Of a DNA stretch of 64,000 bases, positions 14,407-55,459 are shown one piece after another. Under the pieces are notes generated by a model. It had not been told where the DNA came from. It made no database searches and worked only from the letters and a program-made list of their open reading frames with translations. The position numbers and the translations under genes were made by a program. The stretch covers positions 192,001 through 256,000 of the forward strand of contig CP147778.1 of the NCBI GenBank assembly GCA_037305845.1. The letters run 5' to 3'. Source of the stretch: Candidatus Freyarchaeum deiterrae (GTDB taxonomy: Archaea; Asgardarchaeota; Jordiarchaeia; Jordiarchaeales; Jordiarchaeaceae). How positions within the stretch are numbered: the stretch's first letter is position 1; each line of letters starts with the position of its first letter.

Positions 14407-14487
14407 GAGCTAAAGTATAATTTACTAGCGACATCAAATCATGGAAGATTTTGATTAAAAAAAAGATAATAAAAAATAGGGTAAATA

Positions 14488-15582
14488 CTATTGTTCTATT
14501 TGAATAGTTTTTGATTCGAATAGTTTTTGGATAAATTCGCCGATTTTGGCTGTTGCTTGTTTTGCTTCGGGTAATACTTCTAGTCCGAAAGATTGCCACA
14601 CGTGTGGCATACCATCCCATGTTTCGAAGGTCACGTCCACCCCTGCCTCCTTAGCTCGGTCGGCGAAACGCTTAGCACCACCGTAGAGCATTTCACTGGT
14701 ACTCGCTTGAACTAGTAGAGGCGGTAGACCTTCCAAATCTGCAAAGAGTGGGGAAATCATGGGATCATTTGGGTCTGCTCCCGCTAAATATGCTGGTACC
14801 CACCAAAAAAGTCCGATATCCGCTAAGACTGGGTCAGTTTCGGCGTTTTTCCAAAACAATTCATCAGAGCCACTCCAATCTGTGTCTGGGGAAAGACTAA
14901 CTGCTCCAACTGGTAAGGGTATTCCATCATTTCGCAGCTTCAGAAGCGTCATGAGCGTCAGACTACCTCCTGCGGAGTCTCCGGCGATAACAATATTCTC
15001 GGGTTTGATGCCCTTTGATAGAAGCCATTTGTACGCAGCGATGCAATCTTCTAGCTGAGAGGGATACGCATGTTCGGGTGCGAGCCGATAATCTAAACTA
15101 AGTACGCGCATTTTTGTTAACTGCCCCAAAGCAACGGTGAATAAACGGTGACTATTTGGAGAGCCCAAGACCATACCCCCTCCATGGAAATATAGTAAAA
15201 CTCGGTTTTTCTTTGCGTCTGGGGCCGTCTGCCACTCTGCGGGAACGCCGCCTGCATCGATTTTTTCCACCTTTACATTTTTAGGAATTGGATAAGTTTT
15301 TTGGTCGACATTCGCAGCATAGTCAAAGCCATATCGGAATACCTTAGCTAGTAAAATCATTTCTTCTTTTGTAAAATAACTATAAATGTCGGCTTCCGTT
15401 CCCTTTGTCTTAAAGAAAATCTCATTCCCGCTTATCACTTTTGGATACAGAGCTCCGAAGGTCATCGCCTGGCTCCCTAGGGTTGGAAGATACCCCATGA
15501 CACCTTCAGTCTGATGCTTTACAAAATCGTCAATGAGTTTTAGTACGTCAGGGCGAATTTTGGATCTATTGCAAATTGGCAT
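14488..15582 (-). CDS. Alpha/beta hydrolase, HSL-family esterase (copy 1)
   Basis: HGGG, YRLAPEH, GDSAGG, MPHVW. Confidence 0.93.
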   Translation of the reverse strand: MPICNRSKIRPDVLKLIDDFVKHQTEGVMGYLPTLGSQAMTFGALYPKVISGNEIFFKTKGTEADIYSYFTKEEMILLAKVFRYGFDYAANVDQKTYPIPKNVKVEKIDAGGVPAEWQTAPDAKKNRVLLYFHGGGMVLGSPNSHRLFTVALGQLTKMRVLSLDYRLAPEHAYPSQLEDCIAAYKWLLSKGIKPENIVIAGDSAGGSLTLMTLLKLRNDGIPLPVGAVSLSPDTDWSGSDELFWKNAETDPVLADIGLFWWVPAYLAGADPNDPMISPLFADLEGLPPLLVQASTSEMLYGGAKRFADRAKEAGVDVTFETWDGMPHVWQSFGLEVLPEAKQATAKIGEFIQKLFESKTIQIEQ

Positions 15583-15776
15583 TTCTCATTAACTCCTCCT
15601 TCTCCGATTATTATTTTAAATAATTTTTTTGATTAAAAAATAAGTTGTATAATTTTTATGTTTCACGCATATAAGTTTTATGTTTAAAAGCCGCTTTTCA
15701 TTCTAAATTGTAATAATTTTTTAAATTGGAGTTTTAAAGATGAAAATAAAAAAAAGACTATTATGAATGTGTGATT

Positions 15777-16853
15777 CTATTTGAGTAGGTTTTTTATGAA
15801 TTCGACTATTTTGTCTATTGCTTCTTTTGATTCGGGCAAATCGTGTAGTCCGAATTGTTGGAATACATGCACCATGTTGTCCCAAGTTTGTAAAGTTGCT
15901 TTCACACCAGCTGCTTTAGCTCGGTCGACAAGGCGCTTTGAATCACTGAAGAGCATTTCACAGGTACTCGCTTGAAATAGTAAGGGCGGTAGACCTTTCA
16001 AATCTGCTAAAAGCGGAGAAACCGAGGGATCGCTGGGGTCTGCTCCGTCTAAATATGACGTGATCCACCAAAAAACCCCTTTATCTGCTAGAATTGGGTC
16101 CGTCTCAGCGTTTTCAAAAAACGATTCGTCTGAACCTGTATAATCAGTTAGTGGAGAAAGACAGACCGCTCCAGTGGGTAGAGGTGTCCCATCATTTCGT
16201 AATTTCAAAAGTGTTAATAGCGTCAGAGTGCCCCCTGCCGAGTCTCCTGCGATAACAATATTTTTGGGTTTGATACCCGTTGATAGAAGCCATTTGTATG
16301 CTGCCATGCAGTCCTCTTTTGCTGCAGGATACGGGTGTTCGGGTGCGAGCCGGTAATTCACACTCAATACGCGCATCTTTGTTAATTGTCCTAAGGTGGT
16401 AGTGAACACTCGGTGACTATTCGGAGAGCCTAAGACCATGCCTCCTCCGTGAAAATAAAGTATAACTCGGTCTTTCATTGCACCGGGGGCTGTTTGCCAC
16501 TCTGCGGAAACACCTCCAGCATCAATTGGTTCCACTTTTATATTTTTGGGGATGGGGTACTTTTTTTGTTCGATATTAGCAGCATATTCAAAGCCACTTC
16601 GGTATGCCTTGGCTAGGAAAATCATTTCTTCTTTTGTAAAATAACCGTATAATTCGTCTATTGTTCCCTCTCTCTTTTTCTTGAAAAATTGCTCATTTTC
16701 ACTCATCATTTTTTGGAATAGGTCTGTGAAGTCGAACTCCGGATTCTCTTTTGTACTAAGAAACTCTATGATGCCGTTCGTTTGCTCAGTTAGGAGATCG
16801 TCCGTTAGTTTAACTACATCGGGGCGCATTTTTGATCTATTTACTATTTGCAT
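15777..16853 (-). CDS. Alpha/beta hydrolase, HSL-family esterase (copy 2)
   Basis: HGGG, GDSAGG, MVHVF; paralog of its neighbours. Confidence 0.93.
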   Translation of the reverse strand: MQIVNRSKMRPDVVKLTDDLLTEQTNGIIEFLSTKENPEFDFTDLFQKMMSENEQFFKKKREGTIDELYGYFTKEEMIFLAKAYRSGFEYAANIEQKKYPIPKNIKVEPIDAGGVSAEWQTAPGAMKDRVILYFHGGGMVLGSPNSHRVFTTTLGQLTKMRVLSVNYRLAPEHPYPAAKEDCMAAYKWLLSTGIKPKNIVIAGDSAGGTLTLLTLLKLRNDGTPLPTGAVCLSPLTDYTGSDESFFENAETDPILADKGVFWWITSYLDGADPSDPSVSPLLADLKGLPPLLFQASTCEMLFSDSKRLVDRAKAAGVKATLQTWDNMVHVFQQFGLHDLPESKEAIDKIVEFIKNLLK

Positions 16854-17049
16854 TTTTTATTATCTCCCTCAGTATGTTTTTCGTAATTTTGATTTTAAAT
16901 TGCTATTGTTTCATAAAAATTTTTCCTTTATTATTAGTATTTTTTGATTTAGAATATAGATGTTAGAGAAATAGGATAAAATGTTAAAAATTTTTATTTT
17001 GCACTTTTTAAAATTAAAATGAAAAAAAAGTTTCTAGAAGGTTATGGTT

Positions 17050-18126
17050 CTATTTGAATAGTTTTTTAATAAATTCGCCGATTTTGTCTATTGCTTCTTT
17101 TGCTTCTGGTAAAATTCCTAATCCGAAAGCTTGCCATACATGCGGCATATTATCCCATGTTTCTAAAGTCGTATCCACATCAGCCGCTTTAGCTCGGTCG
17201 ACCAAACGCTTGGAATCGCTGAAGAGCATTTCGCTGGTACTCGCTTGGAGTAGCAAAGGCGGTAAACCGCTTAAATCTGCAGATAGAGGGGAAACCAGGG
17301 GATCATTGGGGTCTGCTCCGGCTAGATATGCTGGTATCCACCAAAAAATCCCAACATCTGCTAGAACTGGATCGGTTTCAGCGTTTTCATAAAACGATTT
17401 GCCAGAAGTCGTAAAATCAGTTAATGGTGAAAGACAGACTGCTCCGGCTGGTAAAGGTACTCCGTCGTTTCGTAGTTTCACAAGCGTTAATAGAGTCAAA
17501 GTGCCCCCTGCGGAGTCTCCGGCGATAACGATATTTTCGGGTTTAATACCTGTTGACAGAAGCCATTTGTATGCAGCCGTGCAATCCTCCGGCTCGGCTG
17601 GATAGGGATGTTCGGGCGCAAGGCGGTAATCCACACTCAGCACGCGCATCTTTGTTAACTGCCCTAAAGTAATGGTGAACAATCGGTGAGTATTCGGAGA
17701 GCCCATGATCATGCCCCCTCCGTGAAAATATAGTAAGACCCGATTTTTCTTTGCGCCAGGGGTGGTCTGCCACTCTGCGGGAACGCCCCCTACGTAAATT
17801 GGTTCCACCTTAACATTTTTGGGGGTGGGGTGCTTTTTTTGGTCGGCACTCGCAGCATAATCAAAGCCGAATCGGAATAACTTGCCTAAGATAAGCATTT
17901 CTTCTTCTGTAAAATAATCCTGAAGGTCGTCTTTCTTTCCCTCTCTCTTGTTCTTGAAAAATTGCTCATTTCCCTTTGCCAGTTTCTGGAATAGTGCTCC
18001 AAAGTTGACCCCTTGATTCTCTTTGGCTTTAAGAAACTCTAAGATACCATTCGATTGCTCCTTTAGAAGAGCATCCATGAGTTTAAGCACATCTGGGCGA
18101 ATTTTGGATCTATTTAAAATTGGCAT
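17050..18126 (-). CDS. Alpha/beta hydrolase, HSL-family esterase (copy 3)
   Basis: HGGG, GDSAGG, MPHVW; paralog of its neighbours. Confidence 0.93.
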   Translation of the reverse strand: MPILNRSKIRPDVLKLMDALLKEQSNGILEFLKAKENQGVNFGALFQKLAKGNEQFFKNKREGKKDDLQDYFTEEEMLILGKLFRFGFDYAASADQKKHPTPKNVKVEPIYVGGVPAEWQTTPGAKKNRVLLYFHGGGMIMGSPNTHRLFTITLGQLTKMRVLSVDYRLAPEHPYPAEPEDCTAAYKWLLSTGIKPENIVIAGDSAGGTLTLLTLVKLRNDGVPLPAGAVCLSPLTDFTTSGKSFYENAETDPVLADVGIFWWIPAYLAGADPNDPLVSPLSADLSGLPPLLLQASTSEMLFSDSKRLVDRAKAADVDTTLETWDNMPHVWQAFGLGILPEAKEAIDKIGEFIKKLFK

Positions 18127-21606: not shown

Positions 21607-21684
21607 GAGAAAAAACTACTGAAATTAAACCTAAAGACTATACTACGCCAAGGAATTTGGCTTCATTAAAAATTATAATTTTTA

Positions 21685-21767
21685 ATTGCGCGATTCTAGT
21701 TGAATCTTATAAGATATAAAAGGATTTGAAAAATTAGTAATTTAGTATAATGGTAAAACTTATTAAA
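21685..21767 (+). promoter_or_regulatory. Conserved promoter copy 0 (ATTGCGCGAT, TTATTAAA 75 nt downstream)
   Basis: Palindrome starts 21685, TATA starts 21760; same spacing as the three other copies. Confidence 0.7.
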
Positions 21768-21789
21768 TTTATGTGTAAGTAGATTGATA

Positions 21790-22160
21790 ATCGAGTCCAA
21801 AATGTTTCCCAACTTAACCCGACAAATCTCAGACCCACCGGGAAACATTGACGGATGAGAAAACGAATCCAAAAATAAAAATGACAATGGTTGTCAACTC
21901 CCACGAAGAGTATATGCACCCACGCACCCGAAAATGCTTACCTGGGAAGGAAAAGGCCCGAGGGGACCAGGGGGATTCCCAGGCGAGCAACTCCATTTTC
22001 ATTAAAACCTCTAACTAGTCACAGATGTAACTTCTAAACTTTCCAGAATTTGGTGTTCTATACTCCATTATGGTTTGAAATGTGGGACATTGCACTGCTG
22101 GTAGGTGGCTTCACAACTTCCCGTGGGAACCGGCGAAGGTAATGTAATAACCCGAAAGAT
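21790..22160 (+). ncRNA. Candidate structured ncRNA (divergent relative of copies 1-3)
   Basis: Stems AATGTTTCCC/GGGAAACATT, TGACAA/TTGTCA, TGCTTACCTGGGAA/TTCCCAGGCGAGCA, CATTGC..TGCTGGT/ACCGGCG..GTAATG; shares CACGCACCC.AAAA with copies 1-3; lies behind the shared promoter; no credible ORF; ends approximate. Confidence 0.55.
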
Positions 22161-22318
22161 AATGAAAAATGGGAAAGAAGGATAAATTATAAAACTAGTG
22201 CTGTAAAAACTGCAACTCGTAAATTTAAGAAAATAGAGTGGGCCTTGAAAAAATCCATATTAAATTCAAGAACGATGAATGGATCGACTAAGGACTAATT
22301 ACTCTTTTTTTCCAGATT

Positions 22319-22897
22319 TTACCACATTTTTCCTTTGTAATGCTGCATTATGGGGCAACCGAGGCACTTTTTTTCTTTGTATCTCTTGCATTCGGTGCAA
22401 AGGTATTCGGATCCGCAGAGCGGTCTATCCATAATGTTTATTTTCATTTGGTAGGGAAGGTTTAGGTCCTTTGCGGCTGAAATTATAATGTTGAATTCGA
22501 CGTCTTTGACCTCTGGTAGTCGTCCTAGGTGGCATTCCACTACCGACTGGAGGGTTGATATATCCTCGCCTATGAGAAGCATGAAGACGCTATTTTTTCC
22601 TGATATTGTGAATCCGTTGAAGAAGTGTGGACAATTTTTGAAAATTTCCAATATTTTTTCGCTGTCTGTAGTGGAAACCTCGACTTTGGCAATATAGAGT
22701 CCCATTTTTAGGGGATTTACTCCGCAAATCCTCTGGAATACGCCCATCTCCTTCAGTTTTTTTAGCCTCATAGCTACTGAGGGTTGGGACAGCTTAATGA
22801 TCTCTGCTATTTGTTCCTGAGGAATATCTGGGTCTTCGCTCAGAAGCGATAATATCTCACGGTCTTTCTCATCCAGTTTAACTGCGGGCTCTGCCAT
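22319..22897 (-). CDS. Lrp/AsnC-family transcriptional regulator with Cys-rich C-terminal extension
   Basis: LDEKDREILSLL..LSQPSVAMRLKKL HTH, RAM domain, C-x5-C-x2-C-x7-C-x2-C tail. Confidence 0.9.
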   Translation of the reverse strand: MAEPAVKLDEKDREILSLLSEDPDIPQEQIAEIIKLSQPSVAMRLKKLKEMGVFQRICGVNPLKMGLYIAKVEVSTTDSEKILEIFKNCPHFFNGFTISGKNSVFMLLIGEDISTLQSVVECHLGRLPEVKDVEFNIIISAAKDLNLPYQMKINIMDRPLCGSEYLCTECKRYKEKKCLGCPIMQHYKGKMW

Positions 22898-22941
22898 ATC
22901 TATTTACCAATTATGGAAATTCTTTCCAGAGTTATAAGAAT

Positions 22942-23024
22942 ATTGCGCAATTTCCGTTAAATCAAATAATTTATAATGAATTTGGCTAAAATAATAATAA
23001 AATATATTAGTTATTTTTATTAAA
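22942..23024 (+). promoter_or_regulatory. Conserved promoter copy 1 (ATTGCGCAAT, TTATTAAA 75 nt downstream), overlapping the divergent Lrp promoter
   Basis: Palindrome 22942-22951, TATA starts 23017. Confidence 0.75.
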
Positions 23025-23046
23025 TAGTTGTACGCTAATTAAAATA

Positions 23047-23400
23047 CGAGAAGCATAGACAAAAACAAGTTTCAACTAACCACACAAAAACCAGGAGAAT
23101 CCACCTGGAAGGTTTAGAAAAACCGTCAAGAAAACTATTCCCCAAGAAAGTGCTATGGCTCCCGCTAAGCTTACTTGAGGGGTGGGCCCCGAATTGCTGG
23201 GGAGGAGGCCCCCCCTAAGTAAGCACAAACCTCGGATGGATGCGCTCAAACGAGAATGCAGTCGATGACTCACGAGTTTAGATGCGTGAATGAAAGAGCT
23301 TCGCAGGCTAGCAATAGTATTATGTTTATTGCTGACCACCCACCCTCTCTCCCTCGCACAGTCTGTGGAGCCCCATTAAACACGCACCCAAAACAGAGTG
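23047..23400 (+). ncRNA. Candidate two-domain structured ncRNA, copy 1
   Basis: Hairpin 23169-23224 containing TGCTGGGGAGGAGG; long stem 23284-23385 enclosing the invariant TGACCACCCACCCTCTCTCCCTCGCA; ends approximate. Confidence 0.7.
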
Positions 23401-23561
23401 ATTAAAAACGGACATGACAAGTTGTGCAGAAGTTTAACAAATGTTACTGAGAATAGAAACAAAGACCTGAACACAGAAAGAGACGAATCAACGCATGACC
23501 CTTTATGAAAAACATCATTAAAACTCAAGAAGTATAACTAAAAAGTTAAGGAGGCAAATGG

Positions 23562-23720
23562 ATGACAAATACTCTTACTATAAGAGAAAAAGCCACACTG
23601 GTAGTGGACTTCGATACCTGGAGAGACTTGAACCAGCTCAAAACCGAACTCGGTCTAAAAACCATTGACGATACCATAAAACATTTAATAAAAGAAAACG
23701 GTAACGGCGGCAAGAAGTAG
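23562..23720 (+). CDS. 52-aa ribbon-helix-helix-like micro-protein (not in ORF track)
   Basis: MTNTLTIREKATLVVDFDTWRDLNQLKTELGLKTIDDTIKHLIKENGNGGKK; AAGGAGG RBS at 23548. Confidence 0.75.
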   Translation: MTNTLTIREKATLVVDFDTWRDLNQLKTELGLKTIDDTIKHLIKENGNGGKK

Positions 23721-24115
23721 AAGCTTTCAAATGCAACGTACATCTATTCAATCTTTCTAGTAAAATGATGTATGCATAGTCAGTTCCTCTGTTTTGCACT
23801 ATCTTTTGATTGTAGAGGTGTAAAGGATTAGGTGAGAATGAATGCCAGAAGTTTATTGTGAGATTAAGAAACGGAAGGTTGATGGGGGATTCTGCGCATA
23901 CATGTGTGAACTCCCAGAAACCGAAAAGAAGATCGCTTACAATCCCTTCAGAGGGATACAAACAGACTGCAGCTTCAGCAAGGAATCCTCATAAACAGAA
24001 GAAGTCAGTATAAATGCCAGATTAGGGCATAGTTCATTTTAGCGAGTCGTCTGCGGTTGAGGAGCATCCCGGCGCACTTTGCAGCCTTTTCTTAGCTATG
24101 CCGATCAATCTGCTA

Positions 24116-24481
24116 CTATTGTAAGTGTTCTTTGATTATACTTAGCAGGTTTTCAATTTTTATAGGTTTGAGTATGTAACCGTCTGCACCCTTGTTTACG
24201 GCTTCGATGGCGCTCCGCATTGTAGGATAGCCGGTAACCATAATTTTGACCATTTTGGGGCTGGCATCATTAATAGCAGCCAGAAGTTTTGTTCCTTCCA
24301 TGTCCGGAAGTCGAACGTCTATTAATGCTAGGTCGTAAGAATTGGTCTTGGTTTTTTCGATTGCTTCATTTCCATTTTCTGCCGTGTCGACGGTGTATCC
24401 TTCTTCTTCTAGTATTTTTGTTAGGATGCTTCTTATGCTTTCATCGTCATCGACAACAAGAATACTGGCAGGCCCACCCAT
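24116..24481 (-). CDS. Stand-alone response regulator (receiver domain)
   Basis: ILVVDDD, LIDVRLPDMEG, MVTG, YILKP. Confidence 0.93.
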   Translation of the reverse strand: MGGPASILVVDDDESIRSILTKILEEEGYTVDTAENGNEAIEKTKTNSYDLALIDVRLPDMEGTKLLAAINDASPKMVKIMVTGYPTMRSAIEAVNKGADGYILKPIKIENLLSIIKEHLQ

Positions 24482-25004
24482 ACTACTCCCACCATTAATT
24501 TTTGTATTTGATTAGAAGATTTCCAAAGTCCCGCATTTTCCAATAGCGCCTTCCGCGTAGATCCATTCATAGTACATTTTTCGCAGTATCGAATAATAAT
24601 ATTTTATAAACCTTGCAAGAATCTACGCTGCACCGTTTTCTACTTTTTCTGAAAAGTCAAATTCTCCTATACGTATATAATCAATGGTTTTTCTTCAGAA
24701 ACTTTTATGGCTCCCAGATTTAATATTATTATTAATCAGTCTAATCATCTTTTTAAGGCGGAAAGCTTCATTTAACTGCCACACTTCTCCTATAAAAAAC
24801 TATTCAAAAAGTATAATAAAAAAGATATTTTATTCACGCTTTATAGATTTAAATGAGCGCTAATAGTTGAGAAATAAATTAGTAGACGATTATAATTGCA
24901 AAAATACAGGCTTCAAATGGAATTTAATTCGAATCTTGAACAGGTCCACAAACCATATCCAAAAGTTGAGGCTAAATTCCGGGGACAATACAGAGGAGCT
25001 AAAT

Positions 25005-27158
25005 ATGGGAAAATTGGTAGAGAAAACGGAACCCGTTAAAATGCGAAAATCAGGGATCGAAGTTCTGGGCGACATCCCTTGGGGAACACACCTCTGTCAA
25101 TTCTACGAAACCAAGGAAGACCTGCTCGATATTCTAGTGCCCTACTTCGCTGAGGGCCTAAGAGACAATGAATATTGTATATGGGTTACTGCCCCACCCT
25201 TGGACACCGAGGAAGCAAGGGCATCGCTTCAGGAAGCGGTTACCGAATTGGAAAATTATGTGGAGAAGGGGCAGATTGAGATTCTTCCATACACGGATTG
25301 GTATCTTCTCAATGGAGAGTTTGACGAGAACAGGGTTCTTAATGGATGGGTGGAGAAAGAGAAAAGTGCCCTCGAGAGGGGTTTTGAGGGAATACGTCTT
25401 ACGGGGAACTTTATTTGGAGTGAAAAGAAATTTTGGAAAAAGTTCGTAGCATATGACGCAAAAATTAGTGAAATAATTGGAAGGCACCGAATGATTGCTA
25501 TCTGCGCTTACTCTCTTGAGAAATGCACCGGAAACGATATTGCTGATGTTATAAGAAACCATGGGAACGCACTGATTAGAAAGGGAAAATCATGGTTCTT
25601 AGTTGAAGACAGTTCGAAACATAGATTGGAAGATAATAAAGTCGTTGGCAGCCTGACAAAGTTAATGAGAAGCGAAGAGAAATATCGGCAACTAATAGAA
25701 AATTTGAATGAAGGGATTTGGCTCATCGATAAGGAATCCAGGACTACCTTCTGCAATGAGCGTATTTCGGAGATTTTGGGATACACGGTGGACGAGATGA
25801 TTGGTAGGAATTTATTTTCGTTCATGGATGAACACGGTGTGGAGATTGCCAAAAAACTGTTAGAACGCCGCAGAGAGGGAGTAAGAGAGGATCATGATTT
25901 CGAATTTATTCGTAAAGATGGGGCAAGGATTTACACGCGTTTAGGTACGTCACCAATCATAGACGAAAATGGAAATTATGCTGGTGCGCTTGCTGCGGTC
26001 ATAGACATCACAGAACGCAGGCGTATGGAAGAAGAACTGGAGAATTCGGAAAAGCGTTATAAGGAACTGTTCAACAACACTGGTGACGCCATCTTCATCC
26101 ATGACTTGGAAGGTAAATTTCTAGAGGTTAACCGTGTAGCCTGTGAACGCCTCGGCTACAGCCGGGAAGAATTCCTACGGATGAGCCCAATGGACATAGA
26201 CACTCCAGAATATGCAGCCATAGTACCTGAACGGATGGAGGAGCTACGCCAGAAAGGTCAAATCATATTCGAAACGGCTCACTTGAGACGCGACGGCTGC
26301 GACTGCATCCGCATACCCACCGAACTGAGCAGTTGCCTCATTGAGTATGATGGAAAGCCAGCTATCCTCAGCATCGCCAGAGACATCACCGAGCGTAAGA
26401 GAATGGAGGAGGAGCTCAGACGTTACTCCGAGCACCTTGAGGAATTGGTCGAAGAGAGAACAAGAAAGCTGAGAGAAGCCGAGCGGATGGCCGCTATTGG
26501 TGAGACTGCGGCCATGGTGGGCCATGACCTCCGCAACCCGCTGCAGAGCATTTTCGGCTTACTTTATTTAGCTAATAAAAACTTGAATTCTCAAGCCACT
26601 TCAAATGGGAAACAGAAAAATGACTTGGCTGAGTTGTTGCAAACAATCGAGGGACAGGTGGACTACATGAACAAAATTGTTTCTGATCTAGAGGATTACG
26701 CGAAGCCAGTGAATCCCCAACTGGTTGCGACGAGCGTACACCAGCTAATCGATGACACATTCTCAGCGAGAACAATTCCTGAAAATGTTAGAGTCTACAT
26801 GGGAATTGAGGAGGACTTACAACTGGCGATTGACCCCACTATGATGCGGCGTGTATTAGCCAACTTGATTGAAAACGCAGTTCAAGCCATGCCAAACGGA
26901 GGCCAGCTGAAGATAAAAGCTTCCAAAAAGGGGGACTCTGTACTTATAGGTGTAGAGGACACAGGTGTGGGCATACCGGGAGAGAATCTGTCCAAACTTT
27001 TCCAGCCGCTATTCACCACCAAGGCTAAGGGGCAGGGGCTCGGATTAGCCGTCTGCAATAGGCTGGTGGAAGCCCATGGTGGCAGCATTACGGTGGAGAG
27101 TGAGGTGGGTAAAGGCTCAACCTTCACAGTCGAAATACCGCTTAAAAAGATGAATTAA
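25005..27158 (+). CDS. MEDS-PAS-PAS histidine kinase (HK1)
   Basis: PWGTHLCQFYE MEDS motif, two PAS/PAC domains, GHDLRNPL H-box, N/G1/F/G2 boxes; start placed at ATG 25005 by the GAGGAG RBS and alignment with HK2. Confidence 0.92.
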   Translation: MGKLVEKTEPVKMRKSGIEVLGDIPWGTHLCQFYETKEDLLDILVPYFAEGLRDNEYCIWVTAPPLDTEEARASLQEAVTELENYVEKGQIEILPYTDWYLLNGEFDENRVLNGWVEKEKSALERGFEGIRLTGNFIWSEKKFWKKFVAYDAKISEIIGRHRMIAICAYSLEKCTGNDIADVIRNHGNALIRKGKSWFLVEDSSKHRLEDNKVVGSLTKLMRSEEKYRQLIENLNEGIWLIDKESRTTFCNERISEILGYTVDEMIGRNLFSFMDEHGVEIAKKLLERRREGVREDHDFEFIRKDGARIYTRLGTSPIIDENGNYAGALAAVIDITERRRMEEELENSEKRYKELFNNTGDAIFIHDLEGKFLEVNRVACERLGYSREEFLRMSPMDIDTPEYAAIVPERMEELRQKGQIIFETAHLRRDGCDCIRIPTELSSCLIEYDGKPAILSIARDITERKRMEEELRRYSEHLEELVEERTRKLREAERMAAIGETAAMVGHDLRNPLQSIFGLLYLANKNLNSQATSNGKQKNDLAELLQTIEGQVDYMNKIVSDLEDYAKPVNPQLVATSVHQLIDDTFSARTIPENVRVYMGIEEDLQLAIDPTMMRRVLANLIENAVQAMPNGGQLKIKASKKGDSVLIGVEDTGVGIPGENLSKLFQPLFTTKAKGQGLGLAVCNRLVEAHGGSITVESEVGKGSTFTVEIPLKKMN

Positions 27159-27418
27159 GCTGAACAAGAAAAGTTATAGATTTTAAAAAATCTCTCTAAA
27201 ACTGGAGCTAAAAAAATAACTTAAATCTCAAAAACAAGCATCAACAAATTTTTAAATTAGAGTGCCTCGAGGAGTAGCAGCCTAAGCTAATAGTCCGGTA
27301 ATTTGCTATTGGAAATTTATGGCTCTTCGTATAGAAGAGTTGATGTTTCATGCACTTTTGTGCAGTACAAGAATCTGTTTTGCTATTTTTCATGAGGTTT
27401 CTGTTGAATTATAAGAAT

Positions 27419-27501
27419 ATTGTGTAATTTCAATTAAATTAAATAATTTATAACAAAATTTTCAATAATAATAATAAATTATCATAGTTAGTTTTATTAA
27501 A
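27419..27501 (+). promoter_or_regulatory. Conserved promoter copy 2 (ATTGTGTAAT, TTATTAAA 75 nt downstream)
   Basis: Degenerate palindrome starts 27419, TATA starts 27494; flanks align with copy 1. Confidence 0.72.
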
Positions 27502-27524
27502 TAGTTTTGCTCTAATTAAAATAC

Positions 27525-27872
27525 AAGGAGCTTTAAAAAAATCTCAGAACCGTCCACTTGGGAGGCATACAAGGACCAGCAGGGAATTCCCCCGAGAAAA
27601 CGCTGGCTCCAGCTCTGCTTGCGGGAAGGGGGATTTAAAACTGCTTGGGGCGGAGGACTCCTAAATGTTGGGAGGAGGCCCCCCACCTTAAGCCCGCGTC
27701 CTCCAGAATGGGCGACTTCAGTGATCCAGTAATACAGAACTAAAAGTTTAAAGCGTGAATGAAAGAGTTTCACAGACCCCAAATAATATTAAGATAATGG
27801 ATAGATGACCACCCACCCTCTCTCCCTCGCACGGTCTGTGAAGCTCCATTAAACACGCACCCAAAACAGAGT
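27525..27872 (+). ncRNA. Candidate two-domain structured ncRNA, copy 2
   Basis: Hairpin 27643-27693 with TGTTGGGAGGAGG; stem GAGTTTCACAGACC/GGTCTGTGAAGCTC within 27753-27858; invariant 26-mer at 27806-27831; ends approximate. Confidence 0.7.
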
Positions 27873-28035
27873 GCCTAAAAAGACTAAAATGACGAATTCC
27901 ATAGCGCATCAGAGAGAGCACAAGCGGTATGAATAAAAACAACTAACCAAAAAACGAATTGAAGTATGACTTTTACGAAAAAAATCATTAAAGCTTTTGA
28001 AAAGTTGATTAAAAAAAAATTAGTGATGAACATAA

Positions 28036-28188
28036 ATGCTCAAAAGGAATAATAGAATAGAAAAAACTACACTGGTAGTGGACCTTAATGATTTAATCTT
28101 GAAAGAACACAGTGCTCTGAAGCAGATCCTGAAAGAAATCACAAAGGATTACTATTCAATACAGCGAAAGAACACAATCTCTCAGTAA
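28036..28188 (+). CDS. 50-aa micro-ORF related at its N-terminus to 23562-23720
   Basis: MLKRNNRIEKTTLVVDLNDLILKEHSALKQILKEITKDYYSIQRKNTISQ; shares EK(A/T)TLVVD and upstream DNA with the copy-1 ORF. Confidence 0.5.
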   Translation: MLKRNNRIEKTTLVVDLNDLILKEHSALKQILKEITKDYYSIQRKNTISQ

Positions 28189-28815
28189 ACGTTGAAAGCA
28201 CGGCTGTAAAAAAGGAGTAATTCTTACAAAACATTCAATTAGACTAAAAAGTCTGGAAGCAAGAAGACGCGCCTGTAAAGATTATTGTCGACCACTATGA
28301 AAGTGTAAGGAAAGATTTAACAAACATGAGCGAAAGGAGAATACGTTTTTGAAGAAAAAACGATCGAGCCCGAGCCCCAAACGCTTTAATAGTTTTAGCG
28401 TCTCTGCCCTCTGATTTTAAACTATTTCATTTCATTAAGTGTTTTATAGCTTGGTCAATGGTTTTAGACTGGGTTCGGTTTTTAGCTTGCTCAAAGCTCT
28501 CCAAGTATAAATTCTGAATACGACCAATCGGAATTTATTACTTCGAAGGATGCCTATAATTTTTATAATATTTCCAATTAATTTTTATCAAATACGCAAC
28601 CCTTTTAAATGAAGACTTCTTGCAGTTTTATTAAATAAGAACTATTTAGAATATTATGATAAAATAGTTAGTGTTAATTAAGCGGTAAGAGTTAGAAATA
28701 GGGTATATAAAAAATTTTTAAAAAACCTCACTGGTATGAGAAGCTAACATTAAACCAGTTGGCATCATATTTAGAGTTAAGAGAAGTCTGAGGGAAGAAA
28801 GGAAGAGGTTAAGGT

Positions 28816-30594
28816 ATGGTAAAATTGGTGGAGGAGATAGAAAATTCTGCCTTGCGAAAATCTGGAATTGAAGTTCTGGGCGACATCCCTTGGGGAACAC
28901 ACCTCTGTCAATTCTACGAAACTAAAGAAGATATGAAAGATATTCTGGTGCCCTACTTCGCTGAGGGCTTAAGAAACAATGAGATGTGTATGTGGGTGAC
29001 CTCAATACCTTTGGGAGTCGAAGAAGCAACAGCGGCGCTTCGGAAAGCGGTTCCTAACTTGGAATATTACGTGGAGAAGGGGCAGATTGAGATTCTTCCG
29101 TACACGGAATGGTACCTTCTCGGCGGAGAGTTTGATATGGACAGAGTTCTGAATGGATGGATTGAGAAGGAAAAAAGCGCTATTGAGCGCGGGTTTGATG
29201 GGTTGCGTCTTACTGGAAACACTTTCTGGCTTCAGCGGAGCCTCTGGCAAAGCTTCGTGGACTATGAAGCAAAAATAAACGAGGTGATCGGGGAGCACCG
29301 AATGGTCGCCATTTGTACTTACTCGCTTAAAAAATGCACCACCAGCGATGTTATCGACGTCATGAGAAACCATGAGAGCACATTGATTAGAAAGGGAAAA
29401 TCCTGGTTCCTAGCTGAAGATGTCACAAAGCGTAAAATGGCGGAGAATAGGGCTACAGAGAGCCGGACACAGTTGAAGAGAAGCGAAGAGAAATACCGCT
29501 TACTAATAGAAAATTTGAATGAAGGGGTTTGGGTTTACGATAATAAAATCTTGACCTCTTTTGTCAATGAGCGCATGGCTGAGATGTTGGGATACACCGT
29601 GGATGAAATGATTGGTAAACATATATTTTCATTCATGAATGAAAAGGGAGTGGAGATTGCCAAAAAAAAGTTAGAAAGCCGGAAACGGGGAATCGCCGAA
29701 GTTCATGAATTCGAATTTGTCCGAAAAAATGGGACTAGAATTTACACGCAAATAGGTGAATCGCCTATCATAGGCGAAGATGGAAATTTTGCTGGAGCAA
29801 TTGCTGCCGTCACAGATATCTCAGAACACAGGCGAATGGAGGACGAGCTTAGAAATTATTCCGAGCGCCTAGAGGAGTTGGTTGAAGAGAGGACAAGAAA
29901 GCTGAGAGAAGCCGAGCGGATGGCTACAGTAGGTGAGCTGGCTGCTACAGTGGGCCATGATCTCCGCAACCCGCTGCAGAGCATTTTCGGCTTACTTTAT
30001 TTAGCTAATAAAAATTTGAATCCTCAAGCCACTTCAAATGGGAAACAGAAAAATGACTTGGGCGAGTTGTTGCAAACAATAGAGGGACAGGTTGACTACA
30101 TGAGAAAAATTGTTTCTGACCTTGAGGATTACGCGAAGCCAGTGAAGCCTCAACTGGTTGAGACCAGCTTACACCAGCTAATCGATGAAACATTCTCAGC
30201 GATAACAATTCCAGAGAAGGTTCAGGTTTCTATCGGAATTCAAGAGGACTTTCCACAGCTGATGGTTGACCAAGCAATGATGCGACGTGTATTGGACAAC
30301 CTAGTTACAAACGCAGTTCAAGCCATGCCAAACGGAGGTCGACTGACGATAAAAGCATCCGAAACAGATGACAATGCGCTCATAATCGTAGAGGACACGG
30401 GTGTAGGCATACCTGAAGAGAATCTCCCAAAGATTTTCCAGCCACTGTTTACCACAAAGCCTAAAGGTCAAGGGTTCGGATTGCCGGCCTGCAAGAGGCT
30501 GGTGGAAGCCCACGGTGGCAGCATCACGGTGGAGAGTGAGGTGGGTAAAGGCTCAACCTTCACAGTCAAAATACCACTCAGAAATATGAAGTAG
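28816..30594 (+). CDS. MEDS-PAS histidine kinase (HK2)
   Basis: MEDS, one PAS/PAC, GHDLRNPL, HATPase_c boxes. Confidence 0.93.
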   Translation: MVKLVEEIENSALRKSGIEVLGDIPWGTHLCQFYETKEDMKDILVPYFAEGLRNNEMCMWVTSIPLGVEEATAALRKAVPNLEYYVEKGQIEILPYTEWYLLGGEFDMDRVLNGWIEKEKSAIERGFDGLRLTGNTFWLQRSLWQSFVDYEAKINEVIGEHRMVAICTYSLKKCTTSDVIDVMRNHESTLIRKGKSWFLAEDVTKRKMAENRATESRTQLKRSEEKYRLLIENLNEGVWVYDNKILTSFVNERMAEMLGYTVDEMIGKHIFSFMNEKGVEIAKKKLESRKRGIAEVHEFEFVRKNGTRIYTQIGESPIIGEDGNFAGAIAAVTDISEHRRMEDELRNYSERLEELVEERTRKLREAERMATVGELAATVGHDLRNPLQSIFGLLYLANKNLNPQATSNGKQKNDLGELLQTIEGQVDYMRKIVSDLEDYAKPVKPQLVETSLHQLIDETFSAITIPEKVQVSIGIQEDFPQLMVDQAMMRRVLDNLVTNAVQAMPNGGRLTIKASETDDNALIIVEDTGVGIPEENLPKIFQPLFTTKPKGQGFGLPACKRLVEAHGGSITVESEVGKGSTFTVKIPLRNMK

Positions 30595-30831
30595 AGTGAA
30601 CAAGGAAAGTATCCAGATTATGGATAATGAAATTCAAGTCTAAAAAGCACCAACAAATATTAAAAAATAAAAGTATTCAAACTGAGGATTTGATTTTTGG
30701 GTTCCGCGTTAATTAATAATATCAACTTTAAATTTTCAGCCAGTAAGGTCATAATCCTGCCCCTCTTGCCTAAGGAGAAGCTTGATCCTTTTTTTTTATT
30801 AGTTATGGGTTTCCTCTGAATTACAAAGAAT

Positions 30832-30914
30832 ATTGCGCAATTCTAGTTAAATCGAATAATTTATAGTGAAATTTATTACACAAATTATGAATTATAATAG
30901 GCAAATTTATTAAA
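30832..30914 (+). promoter_or_regulatory. Conserved promoter copy 3 (ATTGCGCAAT, TTATTAAA 75 nt downstream)
   Basis: Palindrome 30832-30841, TATA starts 30907. Confidence 0.75.
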
Positions 30915-30937
30915 TAGTTACTAGAGATATATACAAA

Positions 30938-31260
30938 GAAGAAAACACTTAGCCCAACTACAAATACAACAGAGTTACACTAATCCTGGCGGTATGGAAT
31001 GGCGGAGGAAATTACAGGGCTCCCAAAAGTGCTTCAACGGAGGATCCCTCAAATGCTGGGAGGAGGAGGGGTCCTCCCGGAAAGCACACGCTTCAACTGA
31101 AGACTGCACTGGAATTGGTAATTCGGAGTTTAACGGGTTGGTTTAACGCGTGAATGAAAGAGTTTCACAGACCCCAAATAAAATTATGATAATGATGACC
31201 ACCCACCCTCTCTCCCTCGCAGGTCTGTGGAGCTCCATTAAACACGCACCCAGAACAGAT
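30938..31260 (+). ncRNA. Candidate two-domain structured ncRNA, copy 3
   Basis: Hairpin 31029-31087 (GGAGGATCCCT/AGGGGTCCTCC) with loop containing TGCTGGGAGGAGG; stem 31148-31247 enclosing the invariant 26-mer at 31196-31221; ends approximate. Confidence 0.7.
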
Positions 31261-31295
31261 TTACTGAGAGAAACGCTAATACGGAGTGATGTAAA

Positions 31296-31529
31296 ATGGT
31301 TGAAGTTGTTAAGACATTTGGTGAGTTAAAATATCTGGCTGAGAATTGGATAAAGGTGTATGATTTAAAGTGTCCTGTGTGTGGCTCACCGGTCTTCGTT
31401 AGACCATTCAATGTGTTCTCGGTAGCGGCAGAGAGTGGTCTTATTGAGATTGAAATGGAGCAGATATGCCAGAATTCAGAATGTGGTTATAGTGCAATCA
31501 GATTTTATGATATTCAAATTCACGAATAA
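31296..31529 (+). CDS. Small zinc-finger protein
   Basis: CPVCG...CQNSECGY; GGAGTGA RBS. Confidence 0.75.
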   Translation: MVEVVKTFGELKYLAENWIKVYDLKCPVCGSPVFVRPFNVFSVAAESGLIEIEMEQICQNSECGYSAIRFYDIQIHE

Positions 31530-31688
31530 TTCTTGAATTCCTAAACCGATATTTATATTGAATGTGTTACCACAGCAGAAATGTTTTTTGATTGGTTTAG
31601 TGAATAAGCTTAATGTCTATATGTTTATGGTTTACTATTATTACTAGATGAGACTGAAAACGTTAGAATTTGAAAGGCTGGGATCGAA

Positions 31689-33419
31689 TTGTTAAAGGAT
31701 GTTTGTTTGGGGACGCACCTCTGTCAATTCTATGAAACTAAAGAAGATCTTATCGATATTTTAGTTCCCTATTTTGCTGATGGTTTAAGGAAGAATGAGT
31801 TTTGTATGTGGGTGACCTCGCCACCCTTGGTAGTTGAGGAAGCGTGGGCTGCACTTCGGAAAGCGGTCCCTGACTTGGAGAAGTACAGGGAGAAGGGACA
31901 GATTGAGATTCTTCCGTACACGGAATGGTACCTTCTCGGCAGGGAGTTTGATATGAATAGAGTTCTGAATGGATGGGTGGAGAAGGAAAAAAGCGCTATT
32001 GAGCGTGGTTTTGATGGGTTGCGTATTACTGGAAACACTTTCTGGCTTGAGAGGAGCCTCTGGCAAAACTTCGTTGACTATGAGGCTAAAATAAACGAGG
32101 TGATAGGGCAGCATCGAATGATTGCTGTCTGCACTTACTTTCTTGGAAAATGCACCGGCAGCGATGTTGCTGATGTTATAAGAAATCACCAAAGCACGCT
32201 GATTAGAAAGGGAAAATCTTGGTTTATGGTTGAAGATGTTTCAAGGCGTAGATTGGCTGAGAATAAGTTTACAGAGAGCCGGACGCAGTTGAAGAGAAGC
32301 GAAGAGAGATATAGTCTGCTAGTCGAACACTTGAATGAAGGCGTTTGGGCTGTAGATGATAAAGGTGTTACTACCTTTGTTAATGAGCGTTTAGCGGAGA
32401 TGTTGGGATACACCGTGGATGAGATGACTGGTAAGAATTCACATTTATTCCTAAATGAAGAGGGTGTGGAGATTGCTAAAAAAAATTTGGAACTCCGCAG
32501 GCAGGGAATTGAAGGACAGTTCGATTTCGAATTCGTTCGTAAAGACGGAACAAGGATGCTCGGTCGAGTAGGTGCAACACCACTCTTCGATGAAAATGGA
32601 AACTTTGCAGGATCGGTTAGTGTAATCATGGACATAACAGAACGCAAGCGATTAGAGGAGGGTCTTAGGCAGTATTCCGAACACCTTAAGGAGTTGGTGG
32701 AGGAAGGGACTAGAAAGCTGAGAGAAGCTGAGCGGATGGCTACTATAGGTGAGACTGCGGCTATGGTGGGCCACGACCTCCGCAACCCGTTACAAGCTAT
32801 AGTTGGCTCGATCTATTTGGCTAGTGCAAAGTTGAAGTCCATATCCAGACTTAGCCAAGTAAAACAAAAAAGTGACGTAGGGAATCTGTTGCAGACGATT
32901 GAGCAACAGGTGGACTACATGAACAAAATTGTTTCCGATCTTGAGGATTACGCTAGACCGTTAAAGCTTCAACTCGTCGAAACTAGCTTGCAACAGTTAA
33001 TTGATGATACATTATCAACATTGACTGTTCCTGAAAATGTTAAAGTATTCATTGGGATTGAAGAGAATCTTCCAAGTATGATGGTTGACCCCACAGCGAT
33101 TCGACGTGTACTCTCTAATTTAATTACAAATGCCTTTCAAGCCATGCCGGGCGGAGGGCAACTAACGATACGAGCGTCCAAGAGTGAGGACTCTGTTATT
33201 ATGAGTGTTGAGGACACGGGTGTAGGCATATCTGAAGAGAATCTCTCAAAGATTTTCCAGCCGCTGTTCACTACGAAGTCTAAGGGGCAGGGTTTTGGAC
33301 TATCCGTCTGCAGGAGATTGGTGGAAGCCCACGGTGGCAGCATCACGGTTGAGAGTGAGGTGGGTAAAGGCTCAACCTTCACGGTCAAAATTCCTCTCAG
33401 AAAAAAGATGAATAATTAA
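31689..33419 (+). CDS. MEDS-PAS histidine kinase (HK3), 5' end eroded
   Basis: MEDS, PAS, GHDLRNPL, HATPase_c; in-frame TGA at 31671 where HK1/HK2 have CGA. Confidence 0.85.
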   Translation: MLKDVCLGTHLCQFYETKEDLIDILVPYFADGLRKNEFCMWVTSPPLVVEEAWAALRKAVPDLEKYREKGQIEILPYTEWYLLGREFDMNRVLNGWVEKEKSAIERGFDGLRITGNTFWLERSLWQNFVDYEAKINEVIGQHRMIAVCTYFLGKCTGSDVADVIRNHQSTLIRKGKSWFMVEDVSRRRLAENKFTESRTQLKRSEERYSLLVEHLNEGVWAVDDKGVTTFVNERLAEMLGYTVDEMTGKNSHLFLNEEGVEIAKKNLELRRQGIEGQFDFEFVRKDGTRMLGRVGATPLFDENGNFAGSVSVIMDITERKRLEEGLRQYSEHLKELVEEGTRKLREAERMATIGETAAMVGHDLRNPLQAIVGSIYLASAKLKSISRLSQVKQKSDVGNLLQTIEQQVDYMNKIVSDLEDYARPLKLQLVETSLQQLIDDTLSTLTVPENVKVFIGIEENLPSMMVDPTAIRRVLSNLITNAFQAMPGGGQLTIRASKSEDSVIMSVEDTGVGISEENLSKIFQPLFTTKSKGQGFGLSVCRRLVEAHGGSITVESEVGKGSTFTVKIPLRKKMNN

Positions 33420-54368: not shown

Positions 54369-55247
54369 ATGAATTATAAAGACGAAGAAGATGATAAGGA
54401 AGAAAACAACGAAGAAGAAGAAGAAGAGGAAGAAGAAGAAGATTCTGATGAAGAATCCTGGGAAGATGAAGTTTTTGCAGAAGAAGAACCAGGAGAAAAC
54501 GAAACCGAGGATGAAGCAAGCCTAAGACTGCTAATAGTCCTACTGGACGACAGAAACGATAAAGAGCGCGCAAACGCGGTAGAGGCTATAGCAGATTACG
54601 CTACCCAAGGAATAACAGACAAGAACGCCCTACCCAAACTCGTCAAAATGCTGGACGACAAATACGAGGATGCACGCCTCAACGCTGCATTAGCCCTTTC
54701 TAATTACGCAGGTCAAGGACTCACGGATCCTTCCGCTCTACCAAAGATCGTGAAAATGCTGAATGACGACCCGGAGGTAGTAGTATTCGCCGTAACCGCC
54801 CTCGCAGCCTACGCTAACGCAGGGCTTACCGACAAGTCCACCCTACCAAAATTCGTCCAGCTACTGGATGACGACGAAATACGCATGTTCGCCCTAACCG
54901 CCCTAGCCGCATACGCCTCCAAAGGACTCCCAGACAAAACCGCACTACCCAAACTCACACCACTGCTCGACGACAGCGACGAAGGAATACGAATGTACAC
55001 CCTAGCCACAATCGGAGCCTACGCCCAAGCAGGAGCCACAGACAAAACCATACTACCAAAAATAGTAGAACTACTAGAAGACGGATACGTCTGCACACAA
55101 GCCTCAGAAACACTCGGCAAATACGCAGAAAAAGGACTCACAGACAAAAACGCCGTACCCAAACTCAAAGAACTCCTAAAAGACGAAGAATACCACGACA
55201 AAGCCCAAAACGCCCTCGACAAATACGCAGAAAAAGGACTCAAATAA
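54369..55247 (+). CDS. HEAT-repeat protein with acidic N-terminus
   Basis: Poly-Glu/Asp leader; ~38-aa repeats ALPKLVKMLDD...ALAAYA.QGLTDK. Confidence 0.85.
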   Translation: MNYKDEEDDKEENNEEEEEEEEEEDSDEESWEDEVFAEEEPGENETEDEASLRLLIVLLDDRNDKERANAVEAIADYATQGITDKNALPKLVKMLDDKYEDARLNAALALSNYAGQGLTDPSALPKIVKMLNDDPEVVVFAVTALAAYANAGLTDKSTLPKFVQLLDDDEIRMFALTALAAYASKGLPDKTALPKLTPLLDDSDEGIRMYTLATIGAYAQAGATDKTILPKIVELLEDGYVCTQASETLGKYAEKGLTDKNAVPKLKELLKDEEYHDKAQNALDKYAEKGLK

Positions 55248-55459
55248 ATAAACAACTCAACAAGCCAAAGTGAAACACCCACAAAACCCAAAAACAAGTC
55301 CACCCAATGAGCAACAACACCAGAAGCGTGAACACGAGGCAAAAGCTTCCAGTCAACTCTTCACTTACTTCACTTAACTTTTTTATTTTAACAGGAAATT
55401 AGTTTAGTTAACAGACACACATGTGTGTATGTATGTATTTTATCGTGGGACTGAGAGGT

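Follow-up and report, generated by a model that had tools for sequence, protein, structure and literature searches.

Lrp-type regulators of archaea reportedly include activators with tandem upstream sites, such as Ptr2 of Methanocaldococcus jannaschii and Ss-LrpB of Saccharolobus solfataricus. In the Sulfolobales, the beta-alanine-responsive Lrp-type regulator BarR acts as an octamer on three to five semi-palindromes placed at regular intervals between two divergent genes, repressing its own gene and activating its target (PMC10201364). The binding of Ss-LrpB has been the subject of a genome-wide study (PMC4046817), and aCcr1, a small ribbon-helix-helix (RHH) regulator, recognizes a 9-bp palindromic box (PMC9976878). 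Here, we describe a repeated promoter/operator module associated with an Lrp/AsnC-type gene (lrp) of the Asgard archaeon Candidatus Freyarchaeum deiterrae. The stretch of DNA analyzed, hereafter the window, is 64,000 nucleotides (nt) long and corresponds to positions 192001-256000 of a single-contig genome of 3,576,204 bp with 40.7% GC (GCA_037305845.1, contig CP147778.1; G000). The module consists of a block containing a palindrome (Box A), two AT-rich boxes (Box B and Box C) and a TATA block, and was compared with the genomes of five other species of the same genus (G001-G005, the congeners).

Among described systems, BarR-type divergent Lrp control regions are the closest in kind. The lrp/leader-RNA region resembles the barR/aminotransferase region in that an Lrp-type gene is divergent from its target, and several semi-palindromic, AT-centred boxes are situated between the two promoters at a centre-to-centre distance of about 30-32 bp. 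As with BarR, it is predicted here that one bound oligomer can repress the gene of the regulator and activate the other. The two systems differ in operator sequence (TTG-N9-CAA in BarR, a 13-bp YTAT-N5-ATAR here), in the extra, invariant Cys-rich tail of the present regulator, and in the additional GC palindrome of its control region. Furthermore, this region has been copied to nine other loci, and its predicted ancestral target is a long leader RNA with an RHH gene. Ptr2 and Ss-LrpB are said to act through two to three regularly spaced palindromic sites just upstream of the B recognition element (BRE)/TATA, the proximal site abutting the core promoter, and to have a small regulon beyond the regulator's own gene. 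Both likenesses would extend to the module, although the consensus sequences differ and whole 100-bp units, rather than sites alone, are shared among targets, which we attribute to their spread by duplication. The aCcr1/CdrS system (PMC9976878) is similar in combining an RHH-fold protein of about 55 amino acids (aa) with a short palindromic box common to a set of promoters. In contrast, the TATA box follows Box A at a distance of about 75 nt, the sequences show no similarity, and binding by the RHH protein is putative here. In kind, this is no departure from known Lrp-type control; what is new is the candidate operator consensus of a Cys-tailed subfamily with a wide distribution, a cassette spread by duplication, a set of Asgard targets and the extra palindrome.

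The original prediction, which was made from the letters of the window, described four promoters with a palindromic operator 75 nt upstream of the TATA box and proposed that they form a regulon of the adjacent Lrp. The arrangement itself was borne out. The pattern ATTGYGYRAT-N65-TTATTAAA matches the + strand at 21685, 22942, 27419 and 30832 (copies c1-c4), the distance from palindrome start to TATA start is exactly 75 nt in all four copies, and the window contains four such matches compared with 0.00 expected by chance (100 dinucleotide shuffles). The distance of about 45 nt to the lrp start codon had been assigned to the first copy, which is wrong: it is the second copy (22942) whose Box A is 45 nt from the start codon of the divergent lrp gene (22897, minus strand). 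The first copy (21685) faces the lrp gene from beyond its 3' end. The four copies and the regulator gene are as follows, in window coordinates:

21673-21780, + strand: module copy c1, with Box A at 21685-21694, Box B at 21707-21719, Box C at 21738-21750 and TATA at 21760-21767; faces the lrp 3' end
22319-22897, minus strand: lrp, encoding a 192-aa Lrp/AsnC (FFRP) regulator with a winged helix-turn-helix (HTH), a RAM-type domain and a Cys-rich C-terminal tail
22930-23037, + strand: module copy c2, in the putatively ancestral position and shared with the divergent lrp, with Box A at 22942-22951, Box B at 22964-22976, Box C at 22995-23007 and TATA at 23017-23024
27407-27514, + strand: module copy c3, with Box A at 27419-27428 (ATTGTGTAAT), Box B at 27441-27453, Box C at 27472-27484 and TATA at 27494-27501
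30820-30927, + strand: module copy c4, with Box A at 30832-30841, Box B at 30854-30866, Box C at 30885-30897 and TATA at 30907-30914

As also predicted, no + strand open reading frame (ORF) of at least 60 aa is present for 360-540 nt after any of the four promoters. The proposal that they drive structured non-coding transcripts held for the leader behind c2 (folding z = -2.37, with an equally good fold in one of 100 shuffles) and failed for the c1 transcript as a whole, which folds no better than its shuffles (z = -0.57). When the strict pattern of palindrome, N65 and TATA was scanned against the whole genome, as had been suggested, six copies were found. The GC palindrome ATTGCGCAAT is probably not the Lrp operator that it was taken for; a motif found across the family of the regulator, YTAT-N5-ATAR, fits Boxes B and C instead. 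Hence the proposed regulon is retained as a shared promoter/operator unit tied to the adjacent Lrp, for which the evidence is comparative, and is abandoned in respect of the proposed operator site. From these sequences we infer autoregulation by the Lrp, co-control of the units and the predicted transcription starts.

Whole-genome searches with nhmmer and with a sequence-only covariance model (R1) gave the same result, namely exactly ten copies of the module: c1-c4 inside the window and c5-c10 elsewhere in the genome. The ten copies align without gaps over 108 columns with a mean column identity of 78%, and the invariant runs fall within four blocks. Box A (GAATATTGCGCAAT) belongs to an extended block, GAATATTGCGCAATTTC, which spans columns 9-25 and has AATATTG as its conserved core. 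Box B is TTATAATTTATAA/G, also written (T)TATAATTTATA(A/G), and spans columns 35-47. Box C spans columns 66-78 and thus starts 31 nt past the start of Box B, a spacing that the ten copies and the orthologs all keep; in c4, Box C (TTATGAATTATAA) is a perfect YTAT-N5-ATAR. The TATA block is TTTATTAAATA (TTTTATTAAATA over columns 85-97), and TTATTAAAT is invariant in 10/10 copies. Boxes A and B are 24 nt apart, out of phase with the 31-nt box spacing. The centre of Box C is about 19 bp ahead of that of the TATA box and lies near -45 relative to the predicted rightward start; the centre of Box A is about 74 bp from that of the TATA box, close to seven helical turns. Sequence conservation reaches about 30 nt past the TATA box. 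Columns 4-16 and 97-109, where a third or fourth phased Lrp box might lie, showed no match by eye. With up to two mismatches allowed, the extended Box A word has no occurrence in the genome outside the modules, and three further exact Box A 10-mers (1624031, 2879336, 1766199) are not accompanied by the other blocks.

The copies outside the window are followed by these genes:

c5: a Roadblock/LC7 protein (Pfam 25.7 bits, cut-off 23)
c6, c7 and c8: three paralogous proteins of 177-189 aa
c8, first ORF: a 51-aa Cys-rich protein; the c8 module is at G000 614253-614360 (L015:6146-6253)
c9: a 168-aa protein
c10: a 1071-aa protein

Because these six copies precede unrelated genes, the module would appear to behave as a portable promoter/operator cassette. 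In the ESM Atlas, the clusters nearest to the c6, c7 and c8 proteins are specific to Asgard archaea, and one of them bears the label Roadblock/LAMTOR2 or Fuz_longin; this label, like the results of the ESM Atlas searches with the c6 and c9 proteins, is a lead only. Two convergent Roadblock/LC7 genes are present at the c5 locus (L014:3336-3701 and L014:3776-4156), of which only the first stands behind the module copy. Copy c1 is specific to G000, as in the congeners the 3' end of lrp is separated by about 70 nt from an amine oxidase gene. Two other explanations for the repeats were considered and rejected. A mobile element, such as a miniature inverted-repeat transposable element or the end of an insertion sequence, does not account for them: the copies share only the module and variable one-sided flanks, with no inverted-repeat ends and no transposase in the ORF maps around the ten copies. 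A promoter of the rRNA operon was also dismissed, given that the 1.5 kb upstream of the single 16S gene (G000:1804896) contains no match better than E = 2 (nhmmer, filters off).

The protein encoded at 22319-22897 is a bona fide FFRP. Its N-terminal AsnC-type winged HTH scores above the Pfam cut-offs (HTH_24, 5e-14; HTH_AsnC-type, 1.1e-12), and the AlphaFold2 (AF2) model has the HTH helices at residues 10-21, 27-33 and 38-50, with a predicted local distance difference test (pLDDT) value of 79. While the C-terminal domain remains under the cut-off for Pfam AsnC_trans_reg (17.9 bits, cut-off 25), it is modelled with the RAM topology beta-alpha-beta-beta-alpha-beta (strands 68-76, 92-97, 104-110 and 130-138; helices 79-86 and 113-124). 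Foldseek aligned about 150 residues to PH0140, FL11 (FL11-DNA complex 2e1c), AsnC, Lrp and LrpA, with E-values of 3e-11 to 1e-8. The tail is modelled with low confidence (pLDDT 53-70). The closest homologues are annotated as Candidatus Freyarchaeota, Jordarchaeia or Jordarchaeum. NCBIfam holds no named equivalog for the Lrp, the RHH protein or the Roadblock protein. In the family alignment (A3), the subfamily has invariant Cys residues at positions 89, 161, 170, 178 and 181 together with a CLGCP motif, and it spans Halobacteriota, Thermoplasmatota, Methanomassiliicoccales, Nezhaarchaeota and Asgard archaea. The Cys-rich tail suggests metal, redox or Fe-S sensing; it is because this tail is invariant that a metal or redox signal is proposed for the regulator.

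The genomic setting of lrp is shared across the genus. In G001-G005, the module is located between a divergent Lrp ortholog of 192-194 aa and a leader RNA of about 470 nt with identical spacing, and the leader is followed by an ORF of 59-60 aa (the RHH gene) and then by a convergent response regulator. The Lrp-adjacent copy is the sole match to the strict Box B-to-TATA pattern in G001, G003, G004 and G005. In several congeners there is also a paralog, Lrp-B (62% identical), with its own divergent and equally spaced module, which drives a 270-aa Cys-rich protein. The Lrp-B module carries canonical family boxes at positions A and B, the former being TTATAGTGTATAA; it drives no RHH gene and has no GC palindrome at position A. 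The sole full-length Cys-tailed Lrp paralog in G000 (616007-616573, 29% identical) has no module upstream. A tie between the module and the adjacent Lrp is supported by these gene neighborhoods. G000 itself has lost Lrp-B and the Lrp-B module and has kept the gene for the 270-aa Cys-rich protein (3161732-3162544, 82% identical), which now stands behind a PdxT-like gene (compared loci: L118, L119, L025).

The recognition helix of the Lrp, LSQPSVAMR.KKL, is nearly invariant across this widespread subfamily and across phyla, and for this reason the upstream regions of homologous genes were compared. For 80 homologous Lrp loci, 74 of them outside Jordarchaeia, the lrp-upstream regions were read. 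YTAT-N5-ATAR is present in 55/80 regions, compared with 7.7 +/- 2.7 in shuffles (maximum 13), and its strict form CTAT-N5-ATAG in 23, compared with 0.7. Without Jordarchaeia, the motif is found in 50/74 regions and in 5/86 AT-matched windows from the same loci, an enrichment of about tenfold; for the strict form, the respective counts are 23 and 0. Where sites occur in pairs, they are mostly spaced by 31 nt (13/32 pairs), and 19 hits of a position weight matrix (PWM) are found at +/-31. Boxes B and C match this motif as well as the 31-nt spacing. The start of Box B is 74 to 76 nt ahead of the lrp start codon in three Jordarchaeial loci (L039, L041, L042), as is likewise the case in several Thermoplasmatota. 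In contrast, TTGCGCAA is found upstream of lrp solely in the Jordarchaeial loci of this genus and in none of the 74 outside homologues. With its GC core and half-site centres 5 bp apart, the 10-bp GC palindrome has a geometry that fits an Lrp dimer poorly. FL11 reportedly has a 13-bp binding site. The sites of BarR are 15 bp long (PMC10201364). The docking sites predicted for the Lrp are probably Boxes B and C, and not the GC palindrome.

We give a probability of about 0.6 to the reading that the four sites of the window are copies of one Lrp-linked cis-regulatory cassette, with Boxes B and C as the predicted Lrp sites; the ten transcripts would then probably form one regulon. The cassette may have originated between an autoregulated Lrp/FFRP gene and the leader-RNA/RHH operon divergent from it, as a control region serving both directions. 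The AATATTG core of Box A would have been extended to the ATTGCGCAAT palindrome in the G000 lineage. Boxes B and C would serve as 13-bp YTAT-N5-ATAR semi-palindromes with centres 31 bp, or three helical turns, apart, to be occupied by oligomers of the adjacent Lrp. Bound Lrp would control both the rightward TATA and its own leftward promoter in a BarR-like manner. Duplication of the cassette to nine further places in G000 would have produced ten transcription units with the same operator: four leader/non-coding RNAs beside MEDS kinases, one Roadblock protein, three longin/Roadblock-like paralogs, and the 168-aa and 1071-aa proteins. In this model, Lrp binding and the sign of regulation are predictions, as are the transcription starts and the signal.

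Several considerations weigh against this reading. Outside the genus, the pairs spaced by 31 nt are mainly from one order, Methanomassiliicoccales, and thus are not independent. Most Boxes B and C in G000 deviate from the consensus at one to three of the eight specified positions. Due to this degeneracy, no exact YTAT-N5-ATAR pair 31 nt apart occurs anywhere in G000, and the exact pattern is consequently unusable for finding more members of the regulon. Both boxes are AT-rich and TATA-like, and could partly be promoter elements. Box A is conserved as well as Boxes B and C, yet the model does not explain it. Finally, orthologs of the c6/c7 gene family occur without the module in the congeners. 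Much of the regulon is therefore of recent origin, and conservation might look stronger than it is owing to gene conversion.

The copies arose by duplication, because similarity extends left of Box A into lrp-5'-region sequence in c2, c4, c5 and c6, and because c4 and c5 have about 75 nt past the TATA box in common. On that ground it may be argued that they are duplicated DNA only, namely recent segmental duplicates homogenized by gene conversion and under no shared regulation, and that the 75-nt offset merely reflects common descent; the paralogy of the genes behind c6, c7 and c8 also favors this view, as does the closer match of the G000 c8 boxes to other G000 copies than to their own orthologs. 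We nevertheless consider it very improbable. The spacers have diverged to about 50%, whereas the boxes are near-invariant, and identity to the orthologs is about 83% in the boxes and about 48% in the spacers. The columns with at least 90% conservation among the ten paralogs are those identical in the five other species (37/10 versus 22/39; odds ratio 6.6, Fisher p = 1.4e-5). In four congeners, the spacer between Boxes B and C is a G-rich run unrelated to that of G000; since the replaced spacer has exactly the same length, the 75-nt offset is retained. Modules of the same design are also present at three orthologous loci genus-wide, including an ortholog of c8 before the gene for the 51-aa Cys-rich protein in G001, G003, G004 and G005 (PWM scores 11-30, null maximum -31). 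Judged from these alignments, the conservation pattern is not neutral, and the module design is old within the genus and has been expanded in G000. The c8 locus has one further peculiarity: Box A is GCGCA in G000, together with Box B and TATA of the G000 type, and the positional orthologs in four species (L136-L139) have GTTTA and other boxes. This pattern implies either gene conversion or concerted evolution among the G000 copies, or else selection for a shared factor.

An alternative in line with the original prediction is that the Lrp binds ATTGCGCAAT and that this palindrome serves as an upstream activating site at 75 nt from the TATA box, Boxes B and C being AT-rich promoter context only. 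Conservation of the palindrome extends over the ten copies and the Lrp-adjacent orthologs, the lrp start codon is close to it (about 45 nt), and its centre is nearly seven helical turns (~74 bp) from that of the TATA box; moreover, position A could be an ancestral Lrp site, because the Lrp-B module carries the canonical family box TTATAGTGTATAA there. This interpretation is nonetheless unlikely in our view, given the lack of TTGCGCAA upstream of the 74 outside homologues despite their conserved recognition helix, and the 5-bp distance between half-sites, compared with AT-centred Lrp dimer sites of 13-15 bp. In addition, the c8-type orthologs have ATTGTTTATT in place of the palindrome and keep only the left part, AATATTG, and the extended Box A word is found nowhere else in G000 at two or fewer mismatches. 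Box B has likewise been considered as a promoter element. As AATTTATAA, it resembles the archaeal TATA consensus on both strands and might be an additional TATA box that precedes the main one by about 50 nt, or the leftward TATA box of lrp, rather than a regulator site. In the latter case, a leftward start about 26 nt from Box B would land in Box A and give a 45-nt lrp leader with a GGTGA Shine-Dalgarno sequence. Against such tandem promoters, the family motif has conserved C/G flanks, a fixed N5 and 31-nt pairing, none of which a TATA box needs, and it is about tenfold enriched over AT-matched windows. Both roles may coexist where an operator overlaps a TATA box, and promoter function to the exclusion of a regulator seems improbable.

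A candidate for binding Box A is encoded by the first ORF of the ancestral transcript:

23562-23720, + strand: 52-aa RHH protein, first ORF behind c2

RHH proteins are known to recognize short palindromes, with MetJ and CopG as examples. The protein matches the Pfam MatP_C RHH family at E 0.003, its AF2 model shows an extended N-terminus and two helices, and every one of its best Foldseek matches is to an RHH DNA binder, at E-values of 0.2-2 that are weak, the protein being very small. It is plausible that this protein binds Box A. Under such dual control, the RHH protein would bind the GC palindrome and feed back on lrp and its own operon, and the Lrp would use Boxes B and C, an arrangement that is compatible with the Lrp-linked cassette. 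The supported fold is one point in its favor; another is that RHH dimers read palindromes of 8-10 bp, as with the 9-bp box of aCcr1 (PMC9976878). The GC palindrome is present in the modules of the lrp orthologs (Lrp-A) and in the G000 copies, and both the palindrome and the RHH family are found only in Frey/Jordarchaeia; the Lrp-B module has neither an RHH target nor a GC palindrome at position A. Box A also overlaps the putative TATA/BRE or transcription start of lrp. However, this is a comparison of two paralogous systems only, and the distance of about 100 nt from Box A to the rightward start is too great for simple occlusion there, yet Box A is kept in copies without lrp. G000 has a single intact RHH gene, the c3 copy being without helix 1. 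Dual control is somewhat doubtful, although less so than the alternatives above. The small ORF behind c3 (28036-28188) is a decayed RHH gene in which a 10-residue deletion removes helix 1, and the RNA core upstream of it is kept.

On a broader and more tentative level, which we hold to be rather less than an even chance, a copied cassette may have rewired this Asgard genome, with the Cys-tailed, metal- or redox-sensing Lrp and the lineage-specific RHH protein jointly controlling structured leader or non-coding RNAs, MEDS kinases and several 'eukaryotic signature' proteins of the Roadblock/longin type, with boxes that evolve in concert, the G000 c8 copy having gained a GC palindrome absent from its orthologs, and with the 31-bp YTAT-N5-ATAR pair as an undescribed operator of the subfamily in Asgard archaea, Halobacteriota and Thermoplasmatota. 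Gene-specific control of transcription is almost unexplored in Asgard archaea, and no genetic system exists for this organism. This locus provides a set that can be tested in vitro, comprising a defined regulator, a second candidate, and a 100-bp target with four separable elements, together with ten natural promoter variants in one genome and orthologs in five species. It also provides a candidate operator consensus for a widespread and uncharacterised Cys-tailed Lrp subfamily. Additionally, it would exemplify the growth of a regulon via duplication of a whole cassette, including onto Roadblock/longin-like genes relevant to eukaryogenesis.

The predicted transcripts of the four window copies and the neighboring genes are listed below:

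21790-22310, + strand: predicted c1 transcript without an ORF, with its end at a T7 run immediately ahead of the stop codon of lrp
23047-23561, + strand: predicted long leader RNA of c2, with a two-helix hairpin core and a UGGGAGGAGG motif upstream of the core
27524-28188, + strand: predicted c3 leader RNA and degenerate RHH ORF (28036-28188)
30937-31529, + strand: predicted c4 leader RNA and a 77-aa Cys-rich ORF (31296-31529)
24116-24481, minus strand: stand-alone response-regulator receiver (Pfam Response_reg 1.9e-31), convergent with the RHH gene and syntenic in the congeners
24867-27158, 28816-30594 and 31689-33419, + strand: three tandem MEDS-PAS histidine kinase paralogs (Pfam MEDS 1.7e-44, PAS, HisKA, HATPase_c)

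An alignment of the leaders of c2, c3 and c4 with those of four species gave 26 consensus pairs, five of which have compensatory changes. The core comprises an outer helix of 6 pairs, one of which shows compensatory changes, and an inner helix of 10 pairs. The outer helix is GCGUG/CACGC, in which one pair varies between CG, UA and GC; it is followed by a 9+9-nt internal loop, the inner helix of 10 bp and an invariant GACCACCCACC loop. The hairpin core is found at positions 23320-23440, 27795-27905 and 31140-31255 of the window. The internal loop of this core is compatible with a relaxed bulge-helix-bulge, of which only 3/4 central pairs hold in distant orthologs. No Rfam family was found in the window at gathering thresholds, and relaxed searches gave chance-level matches only (sau-5949, E 0.69; CcsR1, E 0.87, on the opposite strand).

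The paralogy of the MEDS kinases was taken from repeat families D1, D3, D4 and D6-D8. The three kinases are 77-86% identical in parts; a module copy is found before each, and c3 and c4 are interleaved with them. The kinases are possibly co-transcribed with c3 and c4, and the locus at 24867-33419 looks like an expanding signalling cluster. Other repeats in the window include three gene paralogs, each about 1.27 kb long, that stand in tandem at 14439-17899 (minus strand), as well as arrays of 102-108-nt repeats at 54574-56407, for which a HEAT/PBS-lyase-like identity is a guess.

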